Positions 3,001-52,049 of a stretch of DNA of 64,000 bases are shown here, piece by piece. This stretch comes from a virus. Under the pieces are notes generated by a model. The model saw only the letters and a list, made by a program, of their open reading frames with translations, did not search any database and was not told the DNA's origin. Position numbers and translations under genes: made by a program. The stretch lies in the IMG/VR virus record IMGVR_UViG_3300021387_000118, positions 77,168-141,167 of that record. One strand, written 5' to 3'. The stretch's first letter is position 1. Each line of letters opens with the position of its first letter.

Positions 3001-5126
3001 AAAGGTGTTGTATATGAATTTTCGCCAAACTCGTCCCTTAAAAAATCATCAAAATAATCAGGTGCCATATCCTAAGATTTTATTTTTGCATCAGGATTAA
3101 TTTTGCGAATACCTTCTTTTAATATACTTTCAAAATCAAAATTATTTGTTTCTATAAGATAATCTACCAATTCTGCTCCAGCTCTTTCCGTAGATGCGAC
3201 AGATTCTTTTATTGTATTAATTAATCCACTCCACACGTCTCCTGGAGAACCGTCAGCATTAAGTTGTGTACCAATCGCGTTATTCATTTCTTGAATAACA
3301 GAAGATAAATCTTCTCCACCTTTTTTTGACATTATATTAAAACCAAGCATTCGAGAAGCATCTTTATAATCATCTCCAGATTCAGATTTATAATCCGGCA
3401 AGTATTTTATTTTCTTTCCCTTCAAAAATGACCTGATCTATAATGCAACATTGCCATCTTTAGGGTTTGCTTCATTGATAATATTAGCGTCTGTCGCAAT
3501 TAAATCTCTAAGGACTCCAATATTACTAAGTTCTCCGGTTTTTTCTGCATCTTTCATTATTCCTTCAATTTCTTCTCGTAATTGTTTGATAGTATTTTTT
3601 GTTAGATTAAACTGTTCTCCGATTTCTTTGGCTATATCAGTAGCAATATTAGAAAATTTATTACTAGAAAATGTATCCTGGATTTCCTTTATCACATCAG
3701 TTACTTCAACGCCTTCTTTTTCGAGTTGATCAAAGTATTGTTGATATCCTCCTAAAAACCCATCTAAATCTTTTTTATTATTTTTTTTACCTGTAAACCC
3801 GCCATTTTCTAGCAGCCAACTTCTCAATTCGTTGCGTTTATTATTTAGCTATTCTATTTTCTATAGTTTTTCTTTTCTATCTAATAAAGATTTTTCAAAT
3901 TCTGAATATAGAGCATCAATATCTGTTGTATCGTCTTTCAGCTTCTCTTTATATTCATCTAACCAGTCTCTCTAGCCATACTTTTCAAAATCTTCATGAG
4001 ACATAACTCTGTTAATAAAATCATCTGTTCTTTTTTGTATTTTTGCTTGTGCATCTGACTGGGCTTTTTCCATATTAGATATCATTTCATTATACGCAGA
4101 CTAAACCTACGAATCTAACATAGAGATCATGCTATCTATATTTCCCAACAACTAATTATTACTCTAAACTTTCTCGCCAAAAGTTTTGTCAAGTTGTGAT
4201 ACTCCAAGATCAGACATTTCATCTTTAAGTTCTTGCATTTTTTGTTTCGTTGCTTCAAGACCTTTTAATTGATTATCATAATATTCTTTATCCTAACCTA
4301 CGTCTACTCCTTCTCCAAGTTTTGTACCAACATCTCTTAGTAGTTGTGCAGCTTCCGATTTTACTTTTTCTAATCTATTATATATTTCTTCGTTTCTTTT
4401 TGCCAGTTGTTCTAATTCTTTGCCAGAAGCAATATCTGCTGCCACATCTGCCTCTTTTAATTCTTGTCGCTTTTTAGAACGAACTTTTTTTTCTGCAATC
4501 CCATATCTTTTTTCTACTTCTTCATTTGCTTCTGAATATGCACTCCAGTTTGGATTATTTATTTGTTTTTTTAAATATTTTCCCGTATCAACATTTTTTA
4601 CAATGTTTTCACTATCAATATAATCAAATATATCTTTAAATGCAGATTGAATTTCAAACTAAAATTTTTCGGCATATTTACTATACTAAATATAGTTTTT
4701 AACATAATCTTCCGCCTGTTTATCAGTAAGTAAACCGCCTCCAAGCGTTTTATCAGCGGCGGTCTATAATTTAGTATATAAACGTTCAATAATTTTATTC
4801 ATTCCATCTTCAAAATGAACATCATCTGGAGTAATTGTTATCTAACGTTTTTTTGAATTCATTGCTTTCTATATTGATTTATCAACTTCCTAAACATTTG
4901 ATTTGACTGGAATATCAATACCTTTCTTAGCTTCTTTCTGAAGATTTTCAATCTTTTTTTTTGATTTATCTATCTATGAATCGTCTATATTGACAGTTCC
5001 ATTTACTTCAATATCTCCACCTAATCTTGAATTAACATCATTCATAGCATTTTGAATAGCTTTCATTAGATCCTAATCTCCAGCATATCTATTACCGCCG
5101 CTTCCACTAAACTTTTTATCTGCCAT
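1..5126 (-). CDS. tail tape measure protein (5' complete, continues past window start); single frame with many in-frame TAG codons
   Basis: ORF fragments 687..878, 1371..1637, 2187..2399, 3072..3425, 3438..3827 and the ATG at 5126 all share one frame (coordinate = 0 mod 3). Junction 3425/3438 is a single TAG. Coiled-coil-rich with a 'GFNIMS...AIGTQL' region. SD AGGAGGTG lies 7 nt upstream of the ATG. Confidence 0.6.
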
Positions 5127-36820: not shown

Positions 36821-38611
36821 TCAGAACCGACCCTGATTATTTGAGTCCATACCATTCATACGTGCCTGAACATCTGTATGAATGCAATTTACAGCCATAA
36901 TATTGTTACTAAATTCAAAATATTTCTCCATTAGAGGATGTTTAACATTTTTAAAATATCCTAGATTATTACTACTATTGTGAGGATTACGTATACCACA
37001 CAAATATTCTCCATCACAAAATCTAGGAGTATATACTTGAATAACTCCATCATCCTGCAAAAGAGTTGGATCTTCTTCCCATGATTTCCCAACAGTATAT
37101 AATAATAAAGCATATGGATTTCCGCACACCGTCAAGTTATCACCGTGAACCGTAATTTTACCTTTACGAAGTTTTGCCACATAATCATTAATAATTTTTG
37201 ATTTATCTACTTTCCACATTTTGCTATTTTCGAAATCATTATTCCAGGCATATAAATCTGCAAGCATTTCATAGTGATTAACAGCAGTAGCATTTTTTCG
37301 TAAAAATTTTTCAAATTCATGATTGTTAGATTTTAATAAATTTACATAGTCAATACTTGTCTGAGCAATCTTATGTATATCATCAGATGTACAAGGTAGC
37401 GTGTTAATCATTTGATATGACATCTGTTGAACATCATTTAATTTTGACGGATGATCCGTTTTGACAATGCCCCATGTGCAATTATCTGCTCTGACATGAT
37501 TGCACCAATAGTCATAAGCAAGCGGCAGAGTACCACCTATAAGATCAACAAACTTTTTAAATTTGGTTGCATTATCAGTAGTAATCATTTTTATGTTCTT
37601 TGCCAAATGCCTATTGCCGTACATATCAGTAATTTCATAAGTATCATAATCTATATTATTATCTTGACAATAATCTTTGATAAACTGTTGAATACGAGTT
37701 CTAAACGCACAGGCTTTAAAAAAGTGATTTCTTAACAACGCCATACCATTGCACCAATCTGGCATAACAGTTGTTTCAATTAATGCCATTCCGTCCCATA
37801 AGGTATTCTTTACATTTGTTTCTTCTCTATGAACAGTACACCTTTTTCTTATTTCTTTTTCGCCATTTTTTAATGTTACCTCATAATCTTCGGCCCTTAC
37901 TATGTCAGCTATAGTATTGAAAAAACTATCTTTATCTTCCAGGATCAAAACATCTTCAACAGGAATGTTAATCGTTCCCTCTATCGCAGAAGTTGATAAT
38001 GGGGCATAGGCGGAAATTTCCACGATCTTTGCCCCATGATCTGGGAGAAGCTTTCCAATCCCCATAGTTAACCAGTTATATGCTTTATCATATAATTCAT
38101 CTCTAATAAACATGACACTACCTTGTTTCGCCTTAGATGGATTACGATAAAGCATCTTATAATAGATTGTTTCTTCCGTTACTTCGCCAGTTTTATTATC
38201 AACTTTATTATATGTAATATGGGTCCCTTGTTCATAAAAAATCCGGCGTATATCATCCTTTGATAGTTTCTTATATAAGTTCTTTTTAGATTTTACTTTT
38301 TCTTCCAAAGTATCAATTAATGCAAGCTGCTCCTGATTATCTTCAGCCTCTTTCCTCATTGAAGCAATATGACTTAGTTCTTCTTTGTAACTTCTCAAAC
38401 CAAATTGAAAGTCTATGCAGATAATATCTCTAGTAGACTCATCTTTTTTATCTGTTTGCATGCCATTATTTTTTAGCCAATGAGTAAATAAAGAATGGTG
38501 CAACATAGCTTCAGTATAGTCATACCTATCTCTGATGCCAGTATTTTTGCCGTAAACAGTAGCAGCTTTATAGTTTCTTATTTTCCATCCATATTGTCCT
38601 ATAGAGATCAT
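36821..38611 (-). CDS. large replication-associated protein (possible TOPRIM/primase-like), candidate 5' exon
   Basis: 596 aa with an IEG...LEDKD pattern. The UGA stop sits at the intron R4 boundary. Confidence 0.35.
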   Translation of the reverse strand: MISIGQYGWKIRNYKAATVYGKNTGIRDRYDYTEAMLHHSLFTHWLKNNGMQTDKKDESTRDIICIDFQFGLRSYKEELSHIASMRKEAEDNQEQLALIDTLEEKVKSKKNLYKKLSKDDIRRIFYEQGTHITYNKVDNKTGEVTEETIYYKMLYRNPSKAKQGSVMFIRDELYDKAYNWLTMGIGKLLPDHGAKIVEISAYAPLSTSAIEGTINIPVEDVLILEDKDSFFNTIADIVRAEDYEVTLKNGEKEIRKRCTVHREETNVKNTLWDGMALIETTVMPDWCNGMALLRNHFFKACAFRTRIQQFIKDYCQDNNIDYDTYEITDMYGNRHLAKNIKMITTDNATKFKKFVDLIGGTLPLAYDYWCNHVRADNCTWGIVKTDHPSKLNDVQQMSYQMINTLPCTSDDIHKIAQTSIDYVNLLKSNNHEFEKFLRKNATAVNHYEMLADLYAWNNDFENSKMWKVDKSKIINDYVAKLRKGKITVHGDNLTVCGNPYALLLYTVGKSWEEDPTLLQDDGVIQVYTPRFCDGEYLCGIRNPHNSSNNLGYFKNVKHPLMEKYFEFSNNIMAVNCIHTDVQARMNGMDSNNQGRF

Positions 38612-41937: not shown

Positions 41938-42504
41938 TTAAGAATTATTCTGTCTCATTAATAGTTCTTTCCAGCCACTTGAATTATAAAAAGAATGAAT
42001 TGTTTTATTGATATCATTACCTCTAAAATAAATATATGGATTAACTGTAAATACTGTTTGGTTAGGAACATCTTCATATAAAATATTTCCAGATTCATGT
42101 TTGCCGATAACACCCTTATGCTGAAGAGCAGCCATTAATTTTTTAGCATAATCATATTTGTATCCATGAATCTCGGCAAGTTCTTTTATGGATAATATTT
42201 TACTTCTTCTATCCATTGTTTTTCTTATTATACAATCTTCAAATGATACATGAGGAGTTAAACATATTGCAAATTTAAATTCTGGAAGAGTCAGATATTT
42301 TTCTAATAATGGTACTACTTCATCATATATTTTTACAAACGATTTATCTCTATTAAAGTCTATTATTCTTGAGTCTATATAATCTTGTTGTTCTTTACGG
42401 CGAACAGATAACTGATCTCCCTGATAGTATTGATCGATGATTTCTCCGGTAGATGTACTTATTAATACTCTTTCTGGGGTTTTTTCTATTTGATTTTCGT
42501 TCAT
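41938..42504 (-). CDS. Rep-like/regulatory DNA-binding protein next to the iterons
   Basis: 188-aa ORF immediately upstream of the iteron array. Confidence 0.35.
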   Translation of the reverse strand: MNENQIEKTPERVLISTSTGEIIDQYYQGDQLSVRRKEQQDYIDSRIIDFNRDKSFVKIYDEVVPLLEKYLTLPEFKFAICLTPHVSFEDCIIRKTMDRRSKILSIKELAEIHGYKYDYAKKLMAALQHKGVIGKHESGNILYEDVPNQTVFTVNPYIYFRGNDINKTIHSFYNSSGWKELLMRQNNS

Positions 42505-42707
42505 TATTATATTCCTTTCTTTGGTTATTTATACCTATAACTGACGTTTGTCTTTTACTACATCCAAAGTAGTAAAAATATTTTTTTGATAGATGACGAT
42601 GTAAAACAGTTGAAAATATATTATATCATGTTAACTAGTGCCAATGGTTTAATAATTCATATCCGCATTTATGTTATGATTGTAACGGCGGAAATAGCTG
42701 TATCATA

Positions 42708-42738
42708 CGCATTAATATATTGGCCGCCTTTGTAAATT
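42708..42738. repeat. direct repeat flanking the GIY-YIG gene (copy 1)
   Basis: ACGCA..TGGCCGCCTTTGT. Second copy at 43645..43675. Confidence 0.45.
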
Positions 42739-42766
42739 CAATACTGTCGTATATGAATTTACTAAC

Positions 42767-43519
42767 TTATAATAATATTTTTTCTATGTCGTTTTTAATA
42801 TTATTATTAATAGCAGTAATATATGATTGAAAATTATTCTTTGTCAACCATTCTGTATAGATTTCTATGTCATTAATTATATATGTTGTTTTAGTTATCA
42901 GATCATTATTTTTAATATAAGATATGTTTCTTTTTGTCAAGTAGCTATCAGGGCTTTTTTCGATCAATTGTTTTATTTTTGAAGATGTTTTTCTGCTACC
43001 TTTATTCTTTTTCTCAGTAATGTCGTTTAATGTTGGAACTCTTATTATCATAAATTTATCATCAACCAACTCTATATTATGGTTTGACATTATTGATATT
43101 ATGTATTTTTTAATTGCTTCAGCAGAATATGATTTGTCATAATATACTAATTTCTTGTTGTATAGGATATTATGTAATGTATCTTCTATGTTGTATAATT
43201 TATAATTTTTAGAATAATGATTAATATATTCGTATTCTAATATGATTAATTCTGCTTTTGTTCTCATAGAATTATAGGATAAATGCGGCTGTATAATTTT
43301 AAATTCAAAAGAATCAATTCCATAATTTATACAATCATTCTGTATCTGTTTATTGTAATGGTTTCCATTTATTAATAAATCATAATGTTCTTTTCTACGA
43401 CGTTGTATGTTCATACTTTCACCTATATAAAAGACATTTGTTTTTCTATTAATTATTGTATAAATTCCTGATAGATTTGCTACTTCAAACAAATTATTGT
43501 TTATAAATGAGATCGGCAT
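42767..43519 (-). CDS. GIY-YIG homing endonuclease
   Basis: GIYTIINRKTNVFYIGESMNIQRRRKEH motif. Confidence 0.7.
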   Translation of the reverse strand: MPISFINNNLFEVANLSGIYTIINRKTNVFYIGESMNIQRRRKEHYDLLINGNHYNKQIQNDCINYGIDSFEFKIIQPHLSYNSMRTKAELIILEYEYINHYSKNYKLYNIEDTLHNILYNKKLVYYDKSYSAEAIKKYIISIMSNHNIELVDDKFMIIRVPTLNDITEKKNKGSRKTSSKIKQLIEKSPDSYLTKRNISYIKNNDLITKTTYIINDIEIYTEWLTKNNFQSYITAINNNIKNDIEKILL

Positions 43520-43644
43520 AATGAATACTCCTTAATAATTAATAATTATGAAATACTATCATATTAATTAGTATCTGTCAATTTCAAACTTATAATATGT
43601 ACGCACAAAGATTTCTTATGCGGCGGCAAATGACTTTATTTTAC

Positions 43645-43675
43645 GCAATAAGGTTATGGGCCGCCTTTGTGTTGA
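43645..43675. repeat. direct repeat flanking the GIY-YIG gene (copy 2)
   Basis: ACGCA..GGGCCGCCTTTGT. Confidence 0.45.
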
Positions 43676-43681
43676 TTTGCT

Positions 43682-43710
43682 GCCACCTTAATAGGGTGGC
43701 TTTTATTTTT
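43682..43710 (+). terminator. hairpin plus T-run (plus-strand terminator-like)
   Basis: GCCACC-UUAAUA-GGGUGGC followed by UUUUAUUUUU. Confidence 0.35.
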
Positions 43711-44064
43711 GCTGAAATAGTGGGCGTATGTACTGGCGATTTCGGATGGTGACATGGGAATTATCATGTGGAAATATTTGGCTTATATGTATTGAAATAT
43801 TAAAAATGTTAATAGGATTATCACTATAGACATTGCAATTCAATGCGGGAAATCTTTAGCGTTTCTCATTGATTACGATGTAGGTTTCGATGATTGGAGT
43901 TCGTTGTAAGTTGTGCATTATATGAGGGAGTAATTGGTGAAATTTTAAGAATGAGATTTTTGAAGTAGTGTGTGGATGGAGCGGCTACGTGGCCCCAGGC
44001 GCACATGGGGTCATGATATGCTGAAAATATGCCTTTTAACTAAATTAAACTAAAATTTTACCTA

Positions 44065-44093
44065 TTTACACAGAAAATGCATAAAATGATATT
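44065..44093 (+). promoter_or_regulatory. possible sigma70-like promoter TTTACA-N17-GATATT
   Basis: Spacing is correct. The -10 hexamer is weak. Confidence 0.25.
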
Positions 44094-44793
44094 GTCACCC
44101 GTCAACCACTACGAAGTAGTCACCCCGGCAACGCCGATGCCCGATAGGGTATCGAAGGGAAGAGCGAAGCCATTCGGGAGCAAACCCGGAACACCAAACA
44201 AAAACCCGGTACACCGCTAGACCGTTACAGTAACGCAAGTGCCCATTTGCAGGAGCGTGACAAGAGCAGACGCAAGCGAGTTTTCCCCCTAGTACGTGGA
44301 AAAGGGGCGCGAAGAAGGAGCGATGCGAGAAGAACACAGCCCCGACCGGATGAGTCCCATTTGACAAGGCCGAACCCCACCCGAAACAATAGACCGGCTT
44401 ATGTAAGACCATAGCAGTGATTCACTGCGAGGTTGAGTGCTTCACTTGACCGTTAGCATGGCAGTAAGACGAGAAGAGGAACGGATCGCACTATTGCGAA
44501 ACCTGAAAAGCGCATTGAATGAGATATCACCCCCTGCAGGGGAATGATCAAATTCACGTTGTGGCATGATACGAGCGAAAAACGCCGTCACCCATGACAA
44601 CGAAAAAATAAACCCTTTTCCAGTTTGGCTGGGTTTGCCCGGATTGCGTGAGTTCCGCAATGGTCAGAAACTGGAGCCGTGGAACGTCCCGGAATTGTCA
44701 CCCGGTGAACGCCTGATCAATTCAGACGCTGACCGGGGAACAGTTCCCCTGAACCATTATTCAGAGCGCATAAATGCGCAGAAAGGACGAGAC
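44094..44793 (+). ncRNA. GC-rich hairpin-dense non-coding element (candidate large structured RNA / regulatory leader)
   Basis: About 55% GC in an AT-rich genome. No plausible ORF (the antisense ORFs look spurious). Many short hairpins (CUACGAAGUAG, CCCCUGCAGGGG, AUUGCG-N7-CGCAAU). 17-bp direct repeats at 44119 and 44697. Confidence 0.35.
44766..44779. promoter_or_regulatory. perfect palindrome GCGCATAAATGCGC (operator candidate)
   Basis: Lies 15 nt upstream of the SD of the first early gene. Confidence 0.4.
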
Positions 44794-45663
44794 ATGAAGA
44801 AAGAGTTTAAGAGTACAGAGATCACCTGCAGATTTAATAACCTGCTTAACCCGGAACAGATCGAAAAGGCTACAAATCTTGTAGCATTCAAGATCAGGAC
44901 ATCCGAACTTGAGACACTGACAGGGGATAAAGATTACAGGAGTTATCTTGAATTGCTTTCAAGTAGCTATCCCGGTGTTGAAAGTTACACGGATGCACAG
45001 ATCAAAGCCGTCACAACTACAGATTTTGACCTGTTCAAGGCACACGAAAAGCTGATTTCTGATCTCAAAGAACAGCTTGAAAAGATCCCGGTTAGCCTTG
45101 AAGACTTCAATAGTCTGACTGGTACAGACAAGAGTATCATACTTCTTGAGTGCCATAAGAACTATAAAGGCATCGGGATAGAAGTCGATGGAGACTGGAA
45201 CAAAGCAATCACAGCGTTTTTTAACTCCGGCAGTCTTTCAAAAGTCAAAGACTTGTTCAGGTCTGCTTTCAATGTCGCAGTCGGGAAGCCCGGGGAACTG
45301 TTCGCCGGGTACAAAATCCGCAAATCGGATTTTTCCGATGCTGACATAAGAAAAGCTGTCTCTCTCGCTTGTGGTGGGGCAGGTCGAACAAAGAAGAAGG
45401 TTACAGACCCGAAGACCAAGGAAAAAATCGAGAAGTTGGGCAACTATGATTGGCGGATCAAGACGGACGCCAAGACGGTTTCCCGGATCGCTTCCGAGCT
45501 TTTCGCTGTTGTGATCGAGTCAAGAGCGGACAGCCTGGAACAGATCAGACCCGAAGCAAAGCAGGAAGCCCCGAAGGAAGTCAAGCAGGACACCAAGCCC
45601 GAAACCCCGAAGCAGGAGCAGAAGAAGCAGGAAGCACCCAAGAAGGACAAAACCACGAAGTAA
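44794..45663 (+). CDS. early hypothetical protein with KE-rich C-terminal tail
   Basis: AAAGGA SD ahead of the internal ATG. The annotated upstream extension lies over the GC-rich element and lacks an RBS. Confidence 0.5.
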   Translation: MKKEFKSTEITCRFNNLLNPEQIEKATNLVAFKIRTSELETLTGDKDYRSYLELLSSSYPGVESYTDAQIKAVTTTDFDLFKAHEKLISDLKEQLEKIPVSLEDFNSLTGTDKSIILLECHKNYKGIGIEVDGDWNKAITAFFNSGSLSKVKDLFRSAFNVAVGKPGELFAGYKIRKSDFSDADIRKAVSLACGGAGRTKKKVTDPKTKEKIEKLGNYDWRIKTDAKTVSRIASELFAVVIESRADSLEQIRPEAKQEAPKEVKQDTKPETPKQEQKKQEAPKKDKTTK

Positions 45664-45742
45664 AACCCACACACCCCCGGCGGGATATCCTGCCGGGGAT
45701 GCATCCCGGAAGCCGTAACCGGGTAAACAACAGCTTGAGAAC

Positions 45743-45913
45743 ATGAAAAAATGGGAGTGCTTTAATATTACTGTTGTCGAAGGTAACAGCGTGTATCCCA
45801 ACGCTTGCGTGTGGGATACAGTCCACCAGTCCGAGCAGATTGAAACCATTCGCCGGGACGGCGTGTGGATTGACGAGGACGGTGTGGAATACGTCTTCGG
45901 AGATAACGACTAA
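45743..45913 (+). CDS. small hypothetical protein (56 aa)
   Basis: Hand-translated. Conserved leader AACAACAGCTTGAGAACATGA. Confidence 0.4.
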   Translation: MKKWECFNITVVEGNSVYPNACVWDTVHQSEQIETIRRDGVWIDEDGVEYVFGDND

Positions 45914-45938
45914 AAGAGCGCTGATGCGCTCTTTTTTT
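45914..45938 (+). terminator. rho-independent terminator
   Basis: AGAGCGC-UGAU-GCGCUCU followed by U7. Confidence 0.6.
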
Positions 45939-46079
45939 ATTGCCTTTTTTTTATGATTGAGTTTTTTATATAAATCATCGCATTTATATAAAAACCTGAA
46001 CCATAAAAATATTTTTCCGGGGAGTATTTGCACGTCATTTTTAATGCGTCATTAAATAACCCCCGGCAGGAGGTATGTT

Positions 46080-46280
46080 ATGAAAAGATTTAACATCCAA
46101 GTGATGATTGGCAAAGAAATCATGCGTCAGGATCATGATTTCGCCATGAAATCAGACGAGGCAGTATTTAGCAGAGTTATTGACCATGTTGAAAACAAGT
46201 ATAATGGCGACGTTATCAGTTTTACGGTAGAACTTCCGATTTATGTTACTGAAGCGCTCGCATGGATTAAGACGAAGTAA
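46080..46280 (+). CDS. hypothetical protein
   Basis: GGAGGT as SD. Confidence 0.5.
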   Translation: MKRFNIQVMIGKEIMRQDHDFAMKSDEAVFSRVIDHVENKYNGDVISFTVELPIYVTEALAWIKTK

Positions 46281-46294
46281 TCGGGAGGCATACT

Positions 46295-46855
46295 ATGAAA
46301 GAATATTGCAAAATTGCAACCGCTTACGGGCAGACTATGCCCGGTTTCCCGGTTCGCCGGGGAGCGGTTTATGGTAAAAATTCCGGGAGGCTTTTCGTTT
46401 GCGAGAATTTCGCGGGCTTCCCGGAGGCGTTGCATGTTTACATTAGTCGCGATAATGGCAAACGCTGGGACAGGGAAAAAATCAACCCGGACAACAAGAT
46501 TTTCCGGGCAATCGCTGACACAATCGGCGGTAAAGTTCCGACACTCGGAACATTCACTGACCCGGAAGCAGGACGTAACAAGGTTGTTGGGCAGCCCCGG
46601 TTGCGCTCACCGCAGAGAGATTATATGCGGTACCGGGATACTAACTATCAGATCCGCAAGACTCAGCTTGATAATGCTGACGCAGGATCTGGAGTAGTAC
46701 GCAATCATGAAGCGTATTACTCGGTTGTACACAAAGACATGATGCGTCCGGGCGTAAACAATCCGTTGTTTGCGGATCGCCCGGAGCCGTTCACAAGCAA
46801 CCCGGTAGAAGTCAACAGGAAATACCGGGAAAAACTGGACAACAGGAAAAAATGA
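46295..46855 (+). CDS. hypothetical protein
   Basis: 186 aa with GGGAGG as SD. Confidence 0.5.
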   Translation: MKEYCKIATAYGQTMPGFPVRRGAVYGKNSGRLFVCENFAGFPEALHVYISRDNGKRWDREKINPDNKIFRAIADTIGGKVPTLGTFTDPEAGRNKVVGQPRLRSPQRDYMRYRDTNYQIRKTQLDNADAGSGVVRNHEAYYSVVHKDMMRPGVNNPLFADRPEPFTSNPVEVNRKYREKLDNRKK

Positions 46856-46877
46856 CCGGTTCGCCGGTCTTTTTTTA
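46854..46877 (+). terminator. rho-independent terminator
   Basis: GACCGG-UUCG-CCGGUC followed by U7. Confidence 0.6.
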
Positions 46878-46879
46878 TG

Positions 46880-47367
46880 CTCGAAAGTAGGTGATACAAA
46901 TAATGTATATGCGCCACATTTTTAACCAAAGCGCATAACCGTCTGATGTGCGCTATGACACAAATAACCGTCGGCGGTGCTAGGTTACTGCATAGTGTAA
47001 CACGCACTATACCATGTTGCGTAAGGGCACGGAGTGTTTCTCCTTATAAGTCCCGACATGGTTACGTGAGAAAACACGGCATAAAAATCCGCGATGTCTG
47101 GTAAACATCGTGTTAAATTCCCTGAGTGTGCAATTACCAGTTGCACATATTATTTAAGGCGTTGGGTTGCGTTGCTGCAGGATTTACCACGATCCTAGCG
47201 GTGTAAAATCTGCGTGAGGTGGTACTCACAATGATCACGGATTATCTTTTAGCCATGCATACGGGGATAAGTTTATACCATGATTGAGCGCATAACTTCG
47301 GTTGTGCGCTTTATTGATGTTATAAATTCATCGCAGAAGCTGACTGCGTTAACAACAGCTTAAAAAC
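46880..47367. promoter_or_regulatory. 488-bp non-coding control region with inverted repeats
   Basis: AGCGCAUAAC..UGUGCGCU hairpins at 46930..46954 and 47287..47310. TGTGCAA-N7-TTGCACA at 47127..47147. Confidence 0.4.
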
Positions 47368-47691
47368 ATGACAATTAAAAACTTAACCCCTCACGCTATC
47401 AACTTCGTCAATGCGGACGGGACTCAGCTACTCGCTGTCGAACCGTCCGGCACAATCGCCAGAGTAACCGCAACCACAGTTACCGTCGGAGAGATCGACG
47501 GCATCCCGGTCACAAGGTCGGAGTATTCCGACGTGACGGGGCTTCCGGCTCCGGAGGACGGTGTTGTTTACGTTGTCTCTTCTCTTGTTGCACAGAGATG
47601 TGCTGACAGGGACGACGTATTCATCCCGAACGAGTCAGTTAGGGATGATCAGGGACGCATCATTGGATGCAAGTCCCTAGGAAGGGTGTAA
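47368..47691 (+). CDS. hypothetical protein
   Basis: 107 aa. Conserved leader AACAACAGCTTAAAAACATGA. Confidence 0.5.
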   Translation: MTIKNLTPHAINFVNADGTQLLAVEPSGTIARVTATTVTVGEIDGIPVTRSEYSDVTGLPAPEDGVVYVVSSLVAQRCADRDDVFIPNESVRDDQGRIIGCKSLGRV

Positions 47692-47796
47692 TAGATTGCA
47701 TGTAACCCATTAACCGCCCACAACTACGACGGGGACTGACAAAGTGGGTCATAACCGTTGGATAGGGTCAAAACGTGCCGGAAGGAGAGTGATCAA

Positions 47797-48045
47797 ATGG
47801 CACGAAAGATAGTTACCAGAGGCGAGGGTATCCGTATCCTCGCCGAGGCTAAACACGAGATGAAGTTTAGCCGAACGGCGGATGAAGCAAGTTATGCATT
47901 CCGCAGAGCGTGTAAGTATCAGGGACTCGTTAATCCGCATTACTGCGGGTCCCGTAGTTGCGAGAGTTGCTCGATACATCGGATGTATAACGAGCAGTTG
48001 AGCAAGATAGCATTTATTAATAACATATTAAAAGAGGAGGAATAA
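47797..48045 (+). CDS. hypothetical protein (Cys-rich C-terminus)
   Basis: GGAAGGAG SD ahead of the internal ATG. Confidence 0.45.
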   Translation: MARKIVTRGEGIRILAEAKHEMKFSRTADEASYAFRRACKYQGLVNPHYCGSRSCESCSIHRMYNEQLSKIAFINNILKEEE

Positions 48046-48049
48046 AATC

Positions 48050-48400
48050 ATGACCGAGAATACAAAAAATATTATCTGCGCCATTGGCGCAACAATTTGT
48101 GGAGTTATTGCCCTGAGTGTTCCATCATGGGCAGATGTCCAGATCCCTGATGGGATCTACCCGACGACAGTCAAGATCATCGACATTTCCGATGTCGAAG
48201 TGATTGACGGAGTCGCAGTTACTGAAGTAACCGGATCAGACGTTTGCGGTCGTACCTATTCATGGTACGACGATGCTGACGATCTATTTATAGGTGACTT
48301 GATGGCGCTAATCATGCTTGATGAGTATGAAACGCCTGATAATGTTCTCGACGATCTGGTGATTGATGCCAGATACGTCGGAACCGCTGACATGTTCTAA
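48050..48400 (+). CDS. secreted/membrane-anchored small protein
   Basis: N-terminal hydrophobic signal-like segment followed by an acidic domain. GAGGAGG as SD. Confidence 0.5.
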   Translation: MTENTKNIICAIGATICGVIALSVPSWADVQIPDGIYPTTVKIIDISDVEVIDGVAVTEVTGSDVCGRTYSWYDDADDLFIGDLMALIMLDEYETPDNVLDDLVIDARYVGTADMF

Positions 48401-48419
48401 AATATTAAGGAGGCAGGAA

Positions 48420-48629
48420 TTGTTTACAATTTGGAATTTAAATACTCATGCTGTAGTCTTTAGGACTAATAATCTTGAAGATGCAATAACAAAATTTAAT
48501 CTGTATCGAGTATTTCAGTCATACGCTCTTGAAGCGTATGATCAGTTCTTCGGTACCGATTACTTGTACGAAATGGAGTATTTTAGAACGGCTCTCGCCA
48601 GAGCTGAGAGGAGGTGTAACCATGCATGA
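48420..48629 (+). CDS. hypothetical protein (TTG start)
   Basis: AAGGAGG sits 7 nt upstream of the TTG. Confidence 0.35.
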   Translation: MFTIWNLNTHAVVFRTNNLEDAITKFNLYRVFQSYALEAYDQFFGTDYLYEMEYFRTALARAERRCNHA

Positions 48630-48873
48630 TGCATCATGGAGCCAAATCCTGAGCGCCATTCAGGAGCGCTACGGAAATAAGTGACCCAACAACGCAAACC
48701 TGTATCATGAGCAACTGAGGCGTGAGGTTTGGTAATTAACCAACGGCGTTTTTTGATTAAGGCAAATTGATACGTGGATTGCATTATACAACTTAATATC
48801 AGATTAAGCCCATAACCGGAAATCGGGTTGTGGGTTTTATTGTGCTATTAAATTGTATTCATGGAGGTGAAGT

Positions 48874-49245
48874 ATGAGAAAAGTAGAAAACAAAATTGTC
48901 TATACGTCCACATGGACAAAGGGAACTAAACTCTGCCGTGTCCACAGCGAGCGGGAATCCGGTGATCGAGTCGCCAAGTTCTGGTTTACAGGCTGGAACC
49001 CGTTCCCGTGTATGTATATGACATCAACCGCCAAATGTGTTACCAAATGGCTGATTGATAACGGCTGGACAAGAGAAGTCTGCGCCAGAATTTCCTGGAC
49101 ACATAATGTGATTGATGATTGCACCGGAGAGGTGCTCGATCATTCTGTTTCTGTATACAGCTACATTCCCGTAAGGGAAACCGCACCGGAGGAGGAACTG
49201 GAGTTCGTCGAAGTACTTGAAGATGACGAGGATGATTTTATGTAA
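48874..49245 (+). CDS. hypothetical protein
   Basis: GGAGGTG as SD. Confidence 0.5.
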   Translation: MRKVENKIVYTSTWTKGTKLCRVHSERESGDRVAKFWFTGWNPFPCMYMTSTAKCVTKWLIDNGWTREVCARISWTHNVIDDCTGEVLDHSVSVYSYIPVRETAPEEELEFVEVLEDDEDDFM

Positions 49246-49329
49246 TTTATAGTTAGATCATTGCCCACAAGGGAAATCCTTTGTGGGTTTTTATGTAACT
49301 ATAAAATTAATACACGGAGGGAAAATAAT

Positions 49330-50142
49330 ATGAATCGTGCAATGGAAATCTATTTTGCTCTTGAAGGTATCAACCACGGAAACCGCCAGTGCGAAGAGAA
49401 ATATGCACTGGATGAGGTGCTTGACACAAGCGAAACCAGTAAGGGAACTCGCCGTCCTGGAGATCGTGCATCTCGACGTAAGGCAACTGCACACAAGAAA
49501 AACGCACTCGGACGCAAGTTCCGCTATGCGAACGAATATATTAACGCCTATTTCGTAAAGGGAAACGGGCAGACTCGCTGGATTGACGACATCATCAAGG
49601 AAAACGCCTGGGATGAGTTCGACTCCATTGATTGGAACAAGGTAAAAGGAATTAACCCGAAGAATTGTGGGTATAAGCAGTATAACAAGCGTCCCGAACT
49701 GATCAAGTCCCGTTATAACGCAAGGGAAATCTGCCGAAAGTATTCCGATGCAGATGATCGCGCTATTAACAAGGCGTGGGCGGAATATTATCGCGACATG
49801 GAAGACAGATGGATTGATGAAGACGATTACGATCCGGTCTGCAATCCCTGGGGGTACACCGAGGAAGAGAAACGGAAAATTGATACTAATCATCTCCACG
49901 GAGATTTTGATCATGTCGCAACGGAAATGATATACGAGGATTATCACAATCCGGGATATCTTGATGATGATGATTACGAGTATTATGGTTACGATCCCTA
50001 TCAGTCTGCGATTGATGACAGGGAAGAGGCATGGGCTGCCATCGCCGATCTCGAAAAGGAAATCGCCCGTTACAAAGATTTCCTCGGCGAGTTCAACTTG
50101 ACCACGCTCTATGAGCGTTGGTTAGCCGACAACAATTCATAA
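49330..50142 (+). CDS. hypothetical protein, acidic Tyr-rich C-terminus
   Basis: GGAGGG SD ahead of the internal ATG. Confidence 0.5.
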   Translation: MNRAMEIYFALEGINHGNRQCEEKYALDEVLDTSETSKGTRRPGDRASRRKATAHKKNALGRKFRYANEYINAYFVKGNGQTRWIDDIIKENAWDEFDSIDWNKVKGINPKNCGYKQYNKRPELIKSRYNAREICRKYSDADDRAINKAWAEYYRDMEDRWIDEDDYDPVCNPWGYTEEEKRKIDTNHLHGDFDHVATEMIYEDYHNPGYLDDDDYEYYGYDPYQSAIDDREEAWAAIADLEKEIARYKDFLGEFNLTTLYERWLADNNS

Positions 50143-50216
50143 TCAGACTATGCCGTTAAGGGAAACCTTGGCGGTATAGATGTGACTATGAGTTAGCAAA
50201 TATTAAGGAGGCAAAC

Positions 50217-50927
50217 ATGGGAAAAACATTATATTTTGAAGGTGCCGGATGTGAAGGTACCAACGTAAATGATGTCGAGAATTGCCGGATCAGAACGGCG
50301 TTCCGCACCGATGATGGAAGGGAATTTTATCTGGAACTCATGAGCGGATGTGAAAACTACCGTCCGAATGATATTCCGTGGAATTTATATGGAATTCCTC
50401 GCCAGAAAAAGAAAAGCGGATGGAGTGATTACATCCAGTTCTCCAACATGATAATCGTTGACTTCTGCTTCGAGATCCATGACGGAAACGGAGATTGCAA
50501 TAGTTTTCGGCACGAGATCGAGCGCAAGAGGACTGCGTTGCCTTACACAAAGGCAAATATTCTCCGGCTAGTCAATGAAAACCTCAATTGTAGTTTTGCA
50601 GATGTTGTGATTCTTCCGTGGCTTTCCGGCTACAGAGTTCATTCGGGAGATCCGAAACGGAAATACAATCTGATGGATGACTATGTGGATATACCCGCAA
50701 GAACTGCGGAACGAAACCGGATTTACCACGAAGAAGCGAAACGGTATTTCGAAAAGATTTACCGTCAGCACATCAAGGCAAACCCGCGAGCTGCAAGACT
50801 TATGAGTAACTATGAAACGTGGAGTCTGGTGAAGTACACAGACAAAACGATCACAATCAGATCTCACACATATAGTGAACTGATTGATGATGATCAGAGA
50901 GTTCATACATTTAGAGTTAAATATTAA
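50217..50927 (+). CDS. hypothetical protein
   Basis: 236 aa with AAGGAGG as SD. Confidence 0.5.
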   Translation: MGKTLYFEGAGCEGTNVNDVENCRIRTAFRTDDGREFYLELMSGCENYRPNDIPWNLYGIPRQKKKSGWSDYIQFSNMIIVDFCFEIHDGNGDCNSFRHEIERKRTALPYTKANILRLVNENLNCSFADVVILPWLSGYRVHSGDPKRKYNLMDDYVDIPARTAERNRIYHEEAKRYFEKIYRQHIKANPRAARLMSNYETWSLVKYTDKTITIRSHTYSELIDDDQRVHTFRVKY

Positions 50928-50940
50928 AGGAGGTACGACT

Positions 50941-51183
50941 ATGACAGGAAAACAAAAGGAAATTATCGCGGACAATCTGCGAGCGTTTACCCATAACTTC
51001 GGGGATGTTCGCATTGAAAAGGAAGATTACGGAAAGGGATTTTATGTATTTTATCCAGCCGACTCCACAAGTTGGATTCAGTTCTGCTATGACATTAACT
51101 ACCTGAACGGATGGCTTTATGGAGTAGTTCAGGGAGTAGTCCGAGGTGAGTTCAAAGAGAAAAGAAAGGAGGTGGACTCATGA
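50941..51183 (+). CDS. hypothetical protein
   Basis: AAAGGAGG as SD. Confidence 0.45.
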   Translation: MTGKQKEIIADNLRAFTHNFGDVRIEKEDYGKGFYVFYPADSTSWIQFCYDINYLNGWLYGVVQGVVRGEFKEKRKEVDS

Positions 51184-51359
51184 AGGTAACAATCAAATAC
51201 AACGTTCCCATTGGCGATTTCCGCGCCATTGAACGGAAAGAGACTTTCCATGCTATCAGTTCGTGGGAAGTGCCTGGAACATCACTTGTCTATTTCAAAA
51301 CAGATCGTTTCAATGTACGATCTGTGGCGAAGGACGAGATCGTAAGTATCGAAAATTAA
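51180..51359 (+). CDS. hypothetical protein (59 aa)
   Basis: Overlapping ATGA junction. AAGGAGG as SD. Confidence 0.4.
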   Translation: MKVTIKYNVPIGDFRAIERKETFHAISSWEVPGTSLVYFKTDRFNVRSVAKDEIVSIEN

Positions 51360-51431
51360 CAACTGAATATTGAATTATTAACAAAGCGAAAACAATTTTA
51401 TTATTTATTAAAGAAAGGTTGGTGTTACATT

Positions 51432-52049
51432 ATGATGAACAGCAAAGATATGATGAAGAAGATGGTTAAGGAGTTCGGTTTTGATGCAGTAAAGGAACTG
51501 GCTGCGCGTATGCAGGAAGAGATCAAAAGGGAAGAGCAGCAGTACAAAAGCATCATACCCACTTCCCGTTATGGAGCCAACGGAAAGACAGTAGAGTTTC
51601 CCGATTGGGTCAAAGAAACTGTTGACCGGGTTGTCTCTGAGCTGGGCATAACCATTACCAAGAAGGGAGATGGAAATTCTCAAAATCTTGCCGTTACAAA
51701 CGAGCAGTTTGCTCTGTACATTGCATATACTTGCAATGATGACGGGAGAACCCTCAGAACGGTACTGGAAATCCTGATGTCTGCTCCGGCATGGTGCAAG
51801 GGATATGGCATGACCAGATCTCGTATGGAACTGGTATTCCATATCCTGGTACTGCATAAGGATGCTAGGGTTGCAAGCGAACTGAAATCGTTCCTTGCAA
51901 AGTACGATCCTACTTCGCTCAAGGTGTTTGCCAACGCAGATGAAGCATTCAGGCACACCCTGAACCATGAGTGCCAGATGATTGCTTTCACCGAAAGGGA
52001 AATCTGCAAGGCAATCGGCGATAGTATGCGGTTTGAGTACGCTGCATAA
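51432..52049 (+). CDS. hypothetical protein
   Basis: 205 aa. Confidence 0.5.
   Translation: MMNSKDMMKKMVKEFGFDAVKELAARMQEEIKREEQQYKSIIPTSRYGANGKTVEFPDWVKETVDRVVSELGITITKKGDGNSQNLAVTNEQFALYIAYTCNDDGRTLRTVLEILMSAPAWCKGYGMTRSRMELVFHILVLHKDARVASELKSFLAKYDPTSLKVFANADEAFRHTLNHECQMIAFTEREICKAIGDSMRFEYAA

Follow-up and report, generated by a model that had tools for sequence, protein, structure and literature searches.

A stretch of 64,000 nucleotides (nt) of viral DNA, corresponding to positions 77,168 to 141,167 of the IMG/VR record IMGVR_UViG_3300021387_000118, constitutes the window of this analysis. At the point where its genes diverge, the window holds an element of 700 nt (44094-44793). This feature is genuine, does not code for protein and very probably represents an RNA structure, with a folded RNA of the plus strand as its likely form. 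On balance, the element appears to be a structured 5' leader RNA that is new and unusually long, goes together with a conserved phage gene and lies outside the curated RNA families; a working role as the leader of this gene is likewise the reading to which the evidence leans. A highly structured early leader had been among the possibilities raised by an earlier note on this DNA. It is now the favoured one in view of a promoter-like block, a Shine-Dalgarno sequence with ATG, conservation, lack of coding and compensatory changes; the word "early" is drawn from position.

The element was aligned among three phages, namely the window and two metagenomic relatives (L001 and L003). The relatives were reached through the protein encoded directly downstream, which is 59-67% identical among the related phages (L001 67%, L003 59%). 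Both carry the same non-coding element at the same location, with a G+C peak of 56-58%. Invariant columns make up about 43% of the element and 50% of the adjacent gene, and therefore purifying selection on the element is roughly as strong as on the gene. The alignment displays long invariant blocks between variable hairpins and inserted hairpins. Many helices of the element are kept by compensatory substitutions.

The consensus structure obtained with RNAalifold comprises 149 pairs in 27 helices, with 93% of cells paired and 39 double-substituted pairs. Shuffled partners gave a mean of 14.9 such pairs (0 of 500 shuffles reached 39), and slid partners gave 1-9. As three sequences and a structure taken from the same alignment make a lenient test, coding alignments were run as controls. 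Seven helices of the element have at least 4 base pairs (bp), at least two double substitutions and at most one broken pair, vs 0 and 0 in two coding alignments. For instance, 4 of 5 pairs are changed in 44516-20/44552-56 and 4 of 6 in 44643-48/44656-61. The covariation for which a comparative check had been proposed is present as compensating changes in seven helices across the three phages, with few sequences and weak statistics. Furthermore, the single-sequence fold of 44550-44800 matches the consensus structure.

The element carries no sign of coding. Each of the six frames is broken by 6-14 stop codons in the window's copy of the element and by 3-12 in its two homologues, and most gaps in the element alignment have lengths that are not divisible by 3. 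Mismatches at the three codon positions number 55/63/59 in the element, vs 60/50/137 with a third-position excess in the adjacent gene. Gene finders call an open reading frame (ORF) of 365 amino acids (aa) at 44566-45663, which overlaps the element by 228 nt. Its 76-aa N-terminal extension is spurious, because MKKE, encoded from 44794, forms the N terminus of the homologous proteins. The antisense ORFs (54-105 aa), which the earlier note had set aside as junk, are indeed unconserved, and stops occur in all homologue frames. A protein-coding homolog, named there as a refuting finding, was absent from both strands in the homologue comparison. The description of about 700 bp of non-coding DNA at the divergence point also stands, given the stops in all frames, the lack of codon periodicity and the positions of the genes. 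The left arm of the window carries leftward genes, the last of which encodes a GIY-YIG endonuclease (42767-43519), and rightward genes follow from the ATG at 44794 on; since minus-strand genes end at 43519 and plus-strand genes begin at 44794, the element lies at the divergence point.

The plus strand of the element is rich in A (A 212, C 184, G 187, T 117; 30% A vs 17% T). Its G+C content is 53.0%, close to the ~55% given earlier, and that of the left flank (42000-44000) is 27.8%. The claimed contrast holds only against the left arm, since the right-hand gene has 46.8% G+C. The coordinates of the element, its parts and the features around it are collected in the table.

Features of the element and its surroundings in the window
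Feature	Coordinates	Strand	Description
Conserved DNA block	43968-43987	+	GTGTGTGGATGGAGCGGCTA, identical in L001 (1070-1089) and L003 (9101-9120); L017 2687-2706
Promoter-like region	44020-44086	+	Conserved A/T-rich block GCTGAAAAT...TTAAACTAAAATTT; -10-like TAAAAT at 44081-44086
Element	44094-44793	+	A-rich non-coding putative leader of 700 nt, 53% G+C; about 25 conserved helices (27 in the consensus fold)
5' domain	44135-44372	+	Hairpins 44135-44154, 44207-44224, 44235-44250, 44287-44307, 44308-44327 and 44347-44372, with A-rich linkers between them
Twin triloop hairpins	44412-44446	+	GCAGUG-AUU-CACUGC and AGUG-CUU-CACU, starts 20 nt apart
Core helix (most conserved)	44557-44602	+	CGUUGUGGCAUG (44557-44568) pairs with CAUGACAACG (44593-44602) around hairpin 44571-44588
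Three-way junction	44618-44676	+	9-bp closing stem 44618-26/44668-76; hairpins 44629-44642 and 44643-44661 (7-nt loop)
22-bp imperfect hairpin (helix 26)	44691-44747	+	Conserved; holds the fourth GTCACCC box and the second 17-mer
Last hairpin and ribosome-binding site	44766-44796	+	GCGC-AUAAAU-GCGC (44766-44779), polypurine Shine-Dalgarno AGAAAGGA (44780-44787), ATG at 44794
Downstream gene	44794-45663	+	289 aa, isoelectric point 8.9, helical, one beta-hairpin, Lys/Glu/Pro-rich tail
Intrinsic terminator	45912-45935	+	AAAAGAGCGC-UGAU-GCGCUCUUUU followed by a U run; 10 pairs (terminator scan)

The 5' domain corresponds to consensus helices 4, 7, 8 and 10-13, of which helices 10, 11 and 13 have 2-3 double-substituted pairs each; extra hairpins are inserted in this domain in the relatives. 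Two near-identical 14-mers, AAACCCGGAACACC and AAACCCGGTACACC, also occur in it 20 nt apart (44182-44215). The twin GUG-NNN-CAC hairpins keep their 20-nt spacing in the window (44417/44437), in L001 (1531/1551) and in a further relative of the gene family, L008 (292/312), whose leader is otherwise unalignable; another, L017, has a single copy. Hairpins of this type with a stem of at least 5 bp number 6 in 7.3 kilobases (kb) of leaders vs 3 in 124.5 kb of the rest, an enrichment of about 35-fold. The pair is a candidate protein-binding site. The core helix has 16 pairs, with two double substitutions in L001 (U-A to C-G and C-G to U-A). The third GTCACCC box sits in its internal loop, and the single-sequence fold reproduces this helix.

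The three-way junction likewise appears in the single-sequence fold, and its helices 22, 23 and 24 have 2, 2 and 4 double-substituted pairs, respectively. Helix 26 consists of 22 pairs, 17 of them invariant and 2 double-substituted, with 95.5% of cells paired; its 3' half can fold on itself instead (GGGGAAC-A-GUUCCCC, 44735-44749). It provides a conserved double-stranded segment of at least ~20 bp as found in leaders processed by ribonuclease (RNase) III, and by this analogy it is a candidate RNase III processing site. The region of the last hairpin and the Shine-Dalgarno sequence is invariant across the three phages, and in all other clades a hairpin lies directly 5' of AGAAAGG/AGGAG. The motif AGCGCATAA at 44765 is repeated at 46930 and 47287. 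A helix closing the 5' and 3' ends (44086-96/44786-95) would lie mostly upstream of the putative start site.

All three phages share the conserved promoter-like block, which has no second copy in the window and gave 9 of 12 matches in a promoter scan; transcription would start at about 44093-44094. An alternative consensus match is TTTACA (44065), 17 nt and GATATT (44093). Two representatives of sister clades, L009 and L017, have near-consensus sigma-70 promoters (TTGCAA-17-TATACT and TTGAAT-17-TATTAT) which align with the TAAAAT of the window and precede the same ATTGTC(A)CC start. Loops and linkers rich in A, together with the Shine-Dalgarno sequence and ATG immediately 3' of the element, are further indications of the plus strand. 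The terminator scan found no plus-strand terminator-like site between 44094 and 44793. Features of an attenuation or riboswitch leader were also lacking, as there is no coding-strand intrinsic terminator before the gene and no Rfam riboswitch aptamer. Nor is there an excess of GGA as in a CsrA/RsmA-type sponge (16 in 700 nt vs ~15 expected from composition).

Because the promoter-like block lies 5', the Shine-Dalgarno sequence and ATG follow the element, and no plus-strand terminator occurs until 45912-45935, the unit is read as promoter, 700-nt leader, gene and terminator. This terminator probably ends a unit of leader, gene and a 56-aa ORF (45743-45913). The family of the downstream protein has 78 representatives in a full HMMER search. 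It has no Pfam or PHROG assignment and no relative in the PDB, and a model of moderate confidence gave no fold match.

The same gene family is preceded by long gene-free stretches in other phages. All 8 placed clusters of the family (P0001-P0005, P0056, P0081 and the L017 protein) have 680 to ~3000 nt without genes upstream, namely at least 836 nt in L007, at least 680 nt in L008, ~3 kb in L009-L014 and 1.6 kb in L017. The stretches of L007 and L008 are hairpin-rich, and the L009 clade has its own compensatory changes. The links across clades are the start motif after the -10, the hairpin abutting an AGAAAGG-type ribosome-binding site, and the twin triloop hairpins.

In sister clades, a module resembling transfer RNA (tRNA) lies in the leader about 60 nt before the ATG of this gene family. 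It consists of a 7-bp acceptor stem and a canonical T arm (GG-UUCRAWU-CC), with an aberrant 'anticodon' loop of 4-5 nt and a long variable arm. The module is found at L009 3848-3936, L017 3776-3863 and in at least seven further distinct IMG/VR loci (L018, L021, L027, L028, L037, L040 and L042). Across the nine sequences, 108 of 108 cells are paired and 8 of 13 pairs covary. ARAGORN calls the L017 module an odd tRNA, and that of L009 has a sub-threshold tRNA-Sec match in Rfam. An acceptor stem with a T arm is the least that RNase P and RNase Z require of a substrate. In L009 and L017, this tRNA-like cloverleaf occupies the leader's 3' part, ahead of the ATG; the same part holds the three-way junction and the 22-bp hairpin in the window clade, and an analogous junction in L007 and L008. 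Since the module is present in sister clades and absent from the window clade, it is treated as a functional analogy only.

Some further features were seen in the sister-clade leaders. In L009 (3962-3985) and 32 IMG/VR contigs (L018-L049), a hairpin TTGCAC-NN-ATGCGTTAAAT-NN-GAG abuts the ribosome-binding site of several different genes. Two tandem copies occur in L020 and L038, and the motif may be a shared signal for translation control or stability. Just upstream of the sigma-70 promoter of L009 (2790-3040; columns 160-400 of alignment A7), an array of TATTACAA/GTTACAA repeats resembles a repressor operator cluster. Moreover, between L009 and L011/L013/L014, mid-leader blocks are swapped (A7 columns 640-900 and 1035-1200) while the flanks and the downstream protein are identical. 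As read from the alignment, these swaps point to modular, fast turnover of internal hairpins.

In the proposed mechanism, the host RNA polymerase would start near 44093, and the transcript would fold into a hairpin body with A-rich linkers (44135-44520), the core helix, the three-way junction, the 22-bp hairpin and the small last hairpin. The 3' module may be a cassette for processing and translation start, a reading adopted because sister clades carry the tRNA-like module in the same 3' part. RNase III would cut the 22-bp hairpin and separate a large 5' RNA from the messenger RNA (mRNA); this processing step, proposed by analogy, is possible but doubtful. The mRNA would keep a short 5' end, shielded as by a 5' stabilizer through the last hairpin and a ribosome on the polypurine site. 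The body of ~600 nt could exert its effect in cis while still attached, or remain afterwards as a separate RNA. The leader might affect the stability or translation of its gene in cis or bind the gene product, for which the twin triloop hairpins would be the best candidate site.

Several points weigh against the element being the leader of this gene. Only three sequences carry this version, and the covariation statistics are therefore weak. Double-changed pairs in the RNAalifold structures amount to 26% in the element vs 12-17% in the two coding alignments of the same three phages, so the raw counts of covarying pairs were down-weighted. The fold-energy z-scores are -5.9 for the window and -3.8 and -4.6 for the relatives; they were dropped as evidence because a 700-nt coding control scored -3.7. 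The hairpin density pointed out in the earlier note is real, but its minimum-free-energy z-score fails to discriminate the element from this control. Watson-Crick covariation is blind to strand, and the minus-strand consensus has -144 kcal/mol vs -126 kcal/mol on the plus strand. The window-clade promoter is without a good -35 element and, like the start site and the cleavage, is putative. Pairing of CGUCC (44684-88) with GGACG (44785-89) against the Shine-Dalgarno sequence is possible in the window and L003 and impossible in L001. Neither a covariance model of the core (R1, 44553-44684) nor an nhmmer profile of the whole element significantly matched the other clades or 94 IMG/VR loci, and for this reason the homology of leaders across clades rests on position, end motifs and the twin hairpins. 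Additionally, no T loop occurs in 44094-44793; ARAGORN finds only tRNA-Asn and tRNA-Pro elsewhere in the window.

Among the other explanations, the element could encode a large, free-standing non-coding RNA of the ROOL or GOLLD kind, made first after infection and working in trans, e.g. as a scaffold, cage or decoy, independently of the downstream gene; its place before that gene would then merely supply a promoter. This is unlikely but conceivable, and it overlaps with the processing model. The size, the ornate multi-helix architecture and the conserved junctions would suit such an RNA, the processing-type module of the sister clades could release it, and the block-wise swaps in the L009 clade are what diversifying pressure would produce. 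However, no terminator separates the element from the gene, no Rfam family is similar, and the link to one gene family is strict even where the leaders no longer align. The leader accompanies a single protein family from clade to clade, and functional coupling with the gene is for this reason favoured over an unrelated function in trans. A functional RNA on the minus strand, i.e. an antisense transcript ending at the terminator-like hairpin 44602-44583, is highly improbable. That hairpin (CGUUGUCAUGGGUGACGGCG, then UUUUU) does lie inside the most conserved core, and the minus-strand consensus fold has lower energy and more pairs. Yet the U runs are the automatic mirror of the A-rich linkers, the helix 44557-68/44593-602 covaries with bases outside the hairpin, and the single-sequence z-score is weaker (-2.75 vs -5.9). 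Moreover, no convincing minus-strand promoter occurs downstream, the sole candidate being a 9/12 match inside the gene.

A site acting at the DNA level, such as part of a packaging (pac) region or genome end, an origin of replication or a set of GTCACCC boxes bound by proteins, is distinctly unlikely as an account of the element. It nevertheless merits serious attention because the genome opening point of SPbeta-like phages lies in an equivalent region, with a YonO-like gene ~5 kb to the left here. The cumulative GC skew also turns at the element. Four GTCACCC boxes were claimed; their count and three positions (44094, 44119 and 44697) are right and all four lie on the plus strand, while the third box starts at 44587 and not 44585; the whole window has 7 vs 2.1 expected. 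However, only the third box is invariant in the three aligned phages. Many hairpins show compensatory changes, which would be unexpected for binding sites in double-stranded DNA, and the strong excess of A over T in a non-coding stretch suggests that a single, transcribed strand is selected. The DNA block at 43968-43987, although conserved in many phages, lies outside the element, ending ~105 nt before the putative RNA start at ~44093. In L017 it is ~450 nt from the leader start, and therefore block and leader are separable. A degenerate form of the block, GTGTRTGGATGRANCNGCTA, is present in 65 IMG/VR phage contigs of 28-216 kb, a single time in each. It is followed ~35 nt later by (G)TTTTAACTA and preceded by a G/T-rich stretch (43700-43990, GC skew +0.3 to +0.44). 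The block itself is probably a DNA-level site, as a packaging site or terminus or a promoter element, e.g. for the phage polymerase, and not a part of the RNA. An excisable or mobile element bounded by 17-bp direct repeats, as the earlier note had also considered, is barely conceivable. Two 17-mers do lie 578 bp apart, but they are identical at only 14 of 17 positions and are not conserved as a pair, for the first is degenerate in L001 (GTCATCCCGACTGCATA) and the second is one strand of the conserved 22-bp hairpin. The check for a deletion between the repeats showed every relative to be occupied; there is no empty site, no terminal inverted repeat and no recombinase gene, and 44094-44118 and 44714-44793 outside the repeats are as conserved as the sequence inside. 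An overlooked protein-coding gene on either strand, at which the minus-strand ORFs and the 76-aa extension might hint, is just as hard to credit, with no conserved ORF, stops in all frames of the homologues, frame-breaking indels, no third-position bias and homologous proteins that start at 44794.

The source of the window is a large gut Firmicutes phage of the SPbeta type, i.e. with a YonO-type RNA polymerase, as judged from its sequence. The gene for the YonO-like single-subunit polymerase lies at 36821-38611 in the left arm, ~5 kb left of the element. In tblastn searches, its relatives are found in human faecal phage contigs, Clostridium phage c-st and Enterocloster phages. Other products of the left arm, besides the GIY-YIG endonuclease, are an exonuclease, an integrase-like protein, a ParB-like protein and several HNH endonucleases. 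Sequence identical to the window occurs on metagenomic contigs of up to 105.8 kb. BLAST of the region, the downstream protein and the sister-clade leaders against 50,697 GenBank phage records gave no match; no cultured phage among these records carries the element. Exact-pattern scans for the window-type element gave 0 matches in IMG/VR and 0 in GTDB genomes, and in the JGI metagenomes only a fragment (L002) and one chance match in an aminotransferase gene (L005). Protein-guided scans gave 0 matches in GTDB genomes and 1 in IMG/VR. Synteny around yonV with phi3T/SPbeta and Clostridioides phage ES-S-0107-01 revealed no equivalent long non-coding region.

The G+C content is ~32% in the left arm, 43-48% in the first 8 kb of the right arm and 36% in the whole window. 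The small genes of 44000-52000 have no assigned function and 43-48% G+C, and the same shift in G+C is seen in L001 and L003. Stop-codon recoding as the cause of ORF-poor stretches was considered and not supported. A second long non-coding stretch of 512 nt (46856-47367) follows a terminator-like hairpin (46856-46878) in the right arm. It contains the two further AGCGCATAA hairpins (46930 and 47287) and a 14-nt inverted repeat spanning 357 nt (46928-41/47299-312). Equivalent gaps occur in L001 (3683-4186, with a weak match of the R1 model at 3634-3750) and in L003 (11664-12387). Two positions, 45725-45749 and 47350-47374, share the start context AACAACAGCTT(G/A)A(G/A)AACATGA without an obvious Shine-Dalgarno sequence; they precede the 56-aa ORF and the gene at 47368.

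Few RNAs of bacteria and phages exceed ~500 nt and have a conserved complex structure, and all classes found to date have been biochemically unusual. The present candidate has a clear genomic address, in which a putative promoter is followed by the structured RNA of 700 nt, a single conserved gene and a terminator. Dozens of gut phage genomes of 75-216 kb hold sister versions with a tRNA-like module, which makes concrete experiments feasible. Even if its action is confined to cis as a leader, it would rank with the longest conserved mRNA leaders of bacteria and would offer a handle on early gene control in an abundant, unstudied phage group. A bolder and rather improbable proposal is that it belongs, as one clade, to a new class of giant ornate phage RNAs (0.7-1 kb), encoded where the rightward arm begins in a large group of uncultivated SPbeta-like gut phages. 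Such RNAs would be released by RNase P/Z or RNase III and form a ribonucleoprotein with the linked protein for host takeover or counter-defence.

The element was compared with known RNA families using cmscan and the 4227 families of Rfam 15, a library that includes ROOL, GOLLD, HEARO, OLE, group I and II introns, riboswitches and T-boxes. Nothing reached the gathering score in the element or its relatives, and nothing relevant appeared up to E = 10, the scans taking in the window and 8 loci; in the whole window, only a tRNA reached the gathering score. Membership in a ROOL/GOLLD-like family, as once suggested, finds no match among these families, and the same holds for every family named in the proposed cmscan check (ROOL, GOLLD, HEARO, OLE and group II). 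ROOL gave no match in a permissive scan of 43400-45000 (E <=10) nor in L001, L003, L007 or L008, and GOLLD had no Rfam match in the window or the relatives. HEARO, OLE and group II introns were without a match up to E = 10, and no reverse transcriptase or IS605-type gene is adjacent. A group I intron with a homing endonuclease was rejected, as there is no Rfam match, the GIY-YIG gene is free-standing on the opposite strand and the flanks are not exons.

ROOL and GOLLD are free-standing genes, often near tRNA genes, whereas the element stands directly before one protein gene with no terminator between. The likeness to them is a resemblance only and lies in the length of more than 500 nt, the many conserved helices and junctions, and the occurrence in Firmicutes-type phages and prophages. 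Both are large ornate RNAs for which cryo-electron microscopy structures are available (PMC12286853). The element shares with HK022 put and lambda nut a structured RNA placed right after a putative early promoter and acting, as proposed here, on its own transcript; HK022 put, however, has ~70 nt and two stem-loops, whereas here the transcription unit is short, with a terminator at 45935. Processing modules that resemble tRNA are known from the MALAT1/mascRNA type, and the phi80 M3 RNA is a substrate of RNase P. The likeness to these lies in the module of the sister clades, while the window clade is without the T loop.

The genome of SPbeta-like phages opens in the intergenic region beside the yonO/yonP cluster (bioRxiv 10.1101/2021.11.22.469490). 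The window resembles it in having a divergent intergenic region near the cluster of the YonO polymerase gene, but no structured segment of 700 nt is described there, and the block 43968-43987 is a better candidate for such a site than the element. Cleavage of SP82 early mRNA by RNase III is given as established (Panganiban & Whiteley 1983, as cited in PMC4838370 and PMC3997798), and polypurine 5' stabilizers of B. subtilis are likewise cited as protecting the downstream product (Hue et al. 1995, as cited in PMC4838370 and PMC3997798). The leaders of SP82, T7 and lambda N resemble the 3' end of the element in their long imperfect hairpin of about two helical turns, followed by a short hairpin and a polypurine site (AGAAAGGA here). 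They differ in being tens to ~200 nt long, whereas in the window ~600 nt of extra conserved structure precedes the hairpin.

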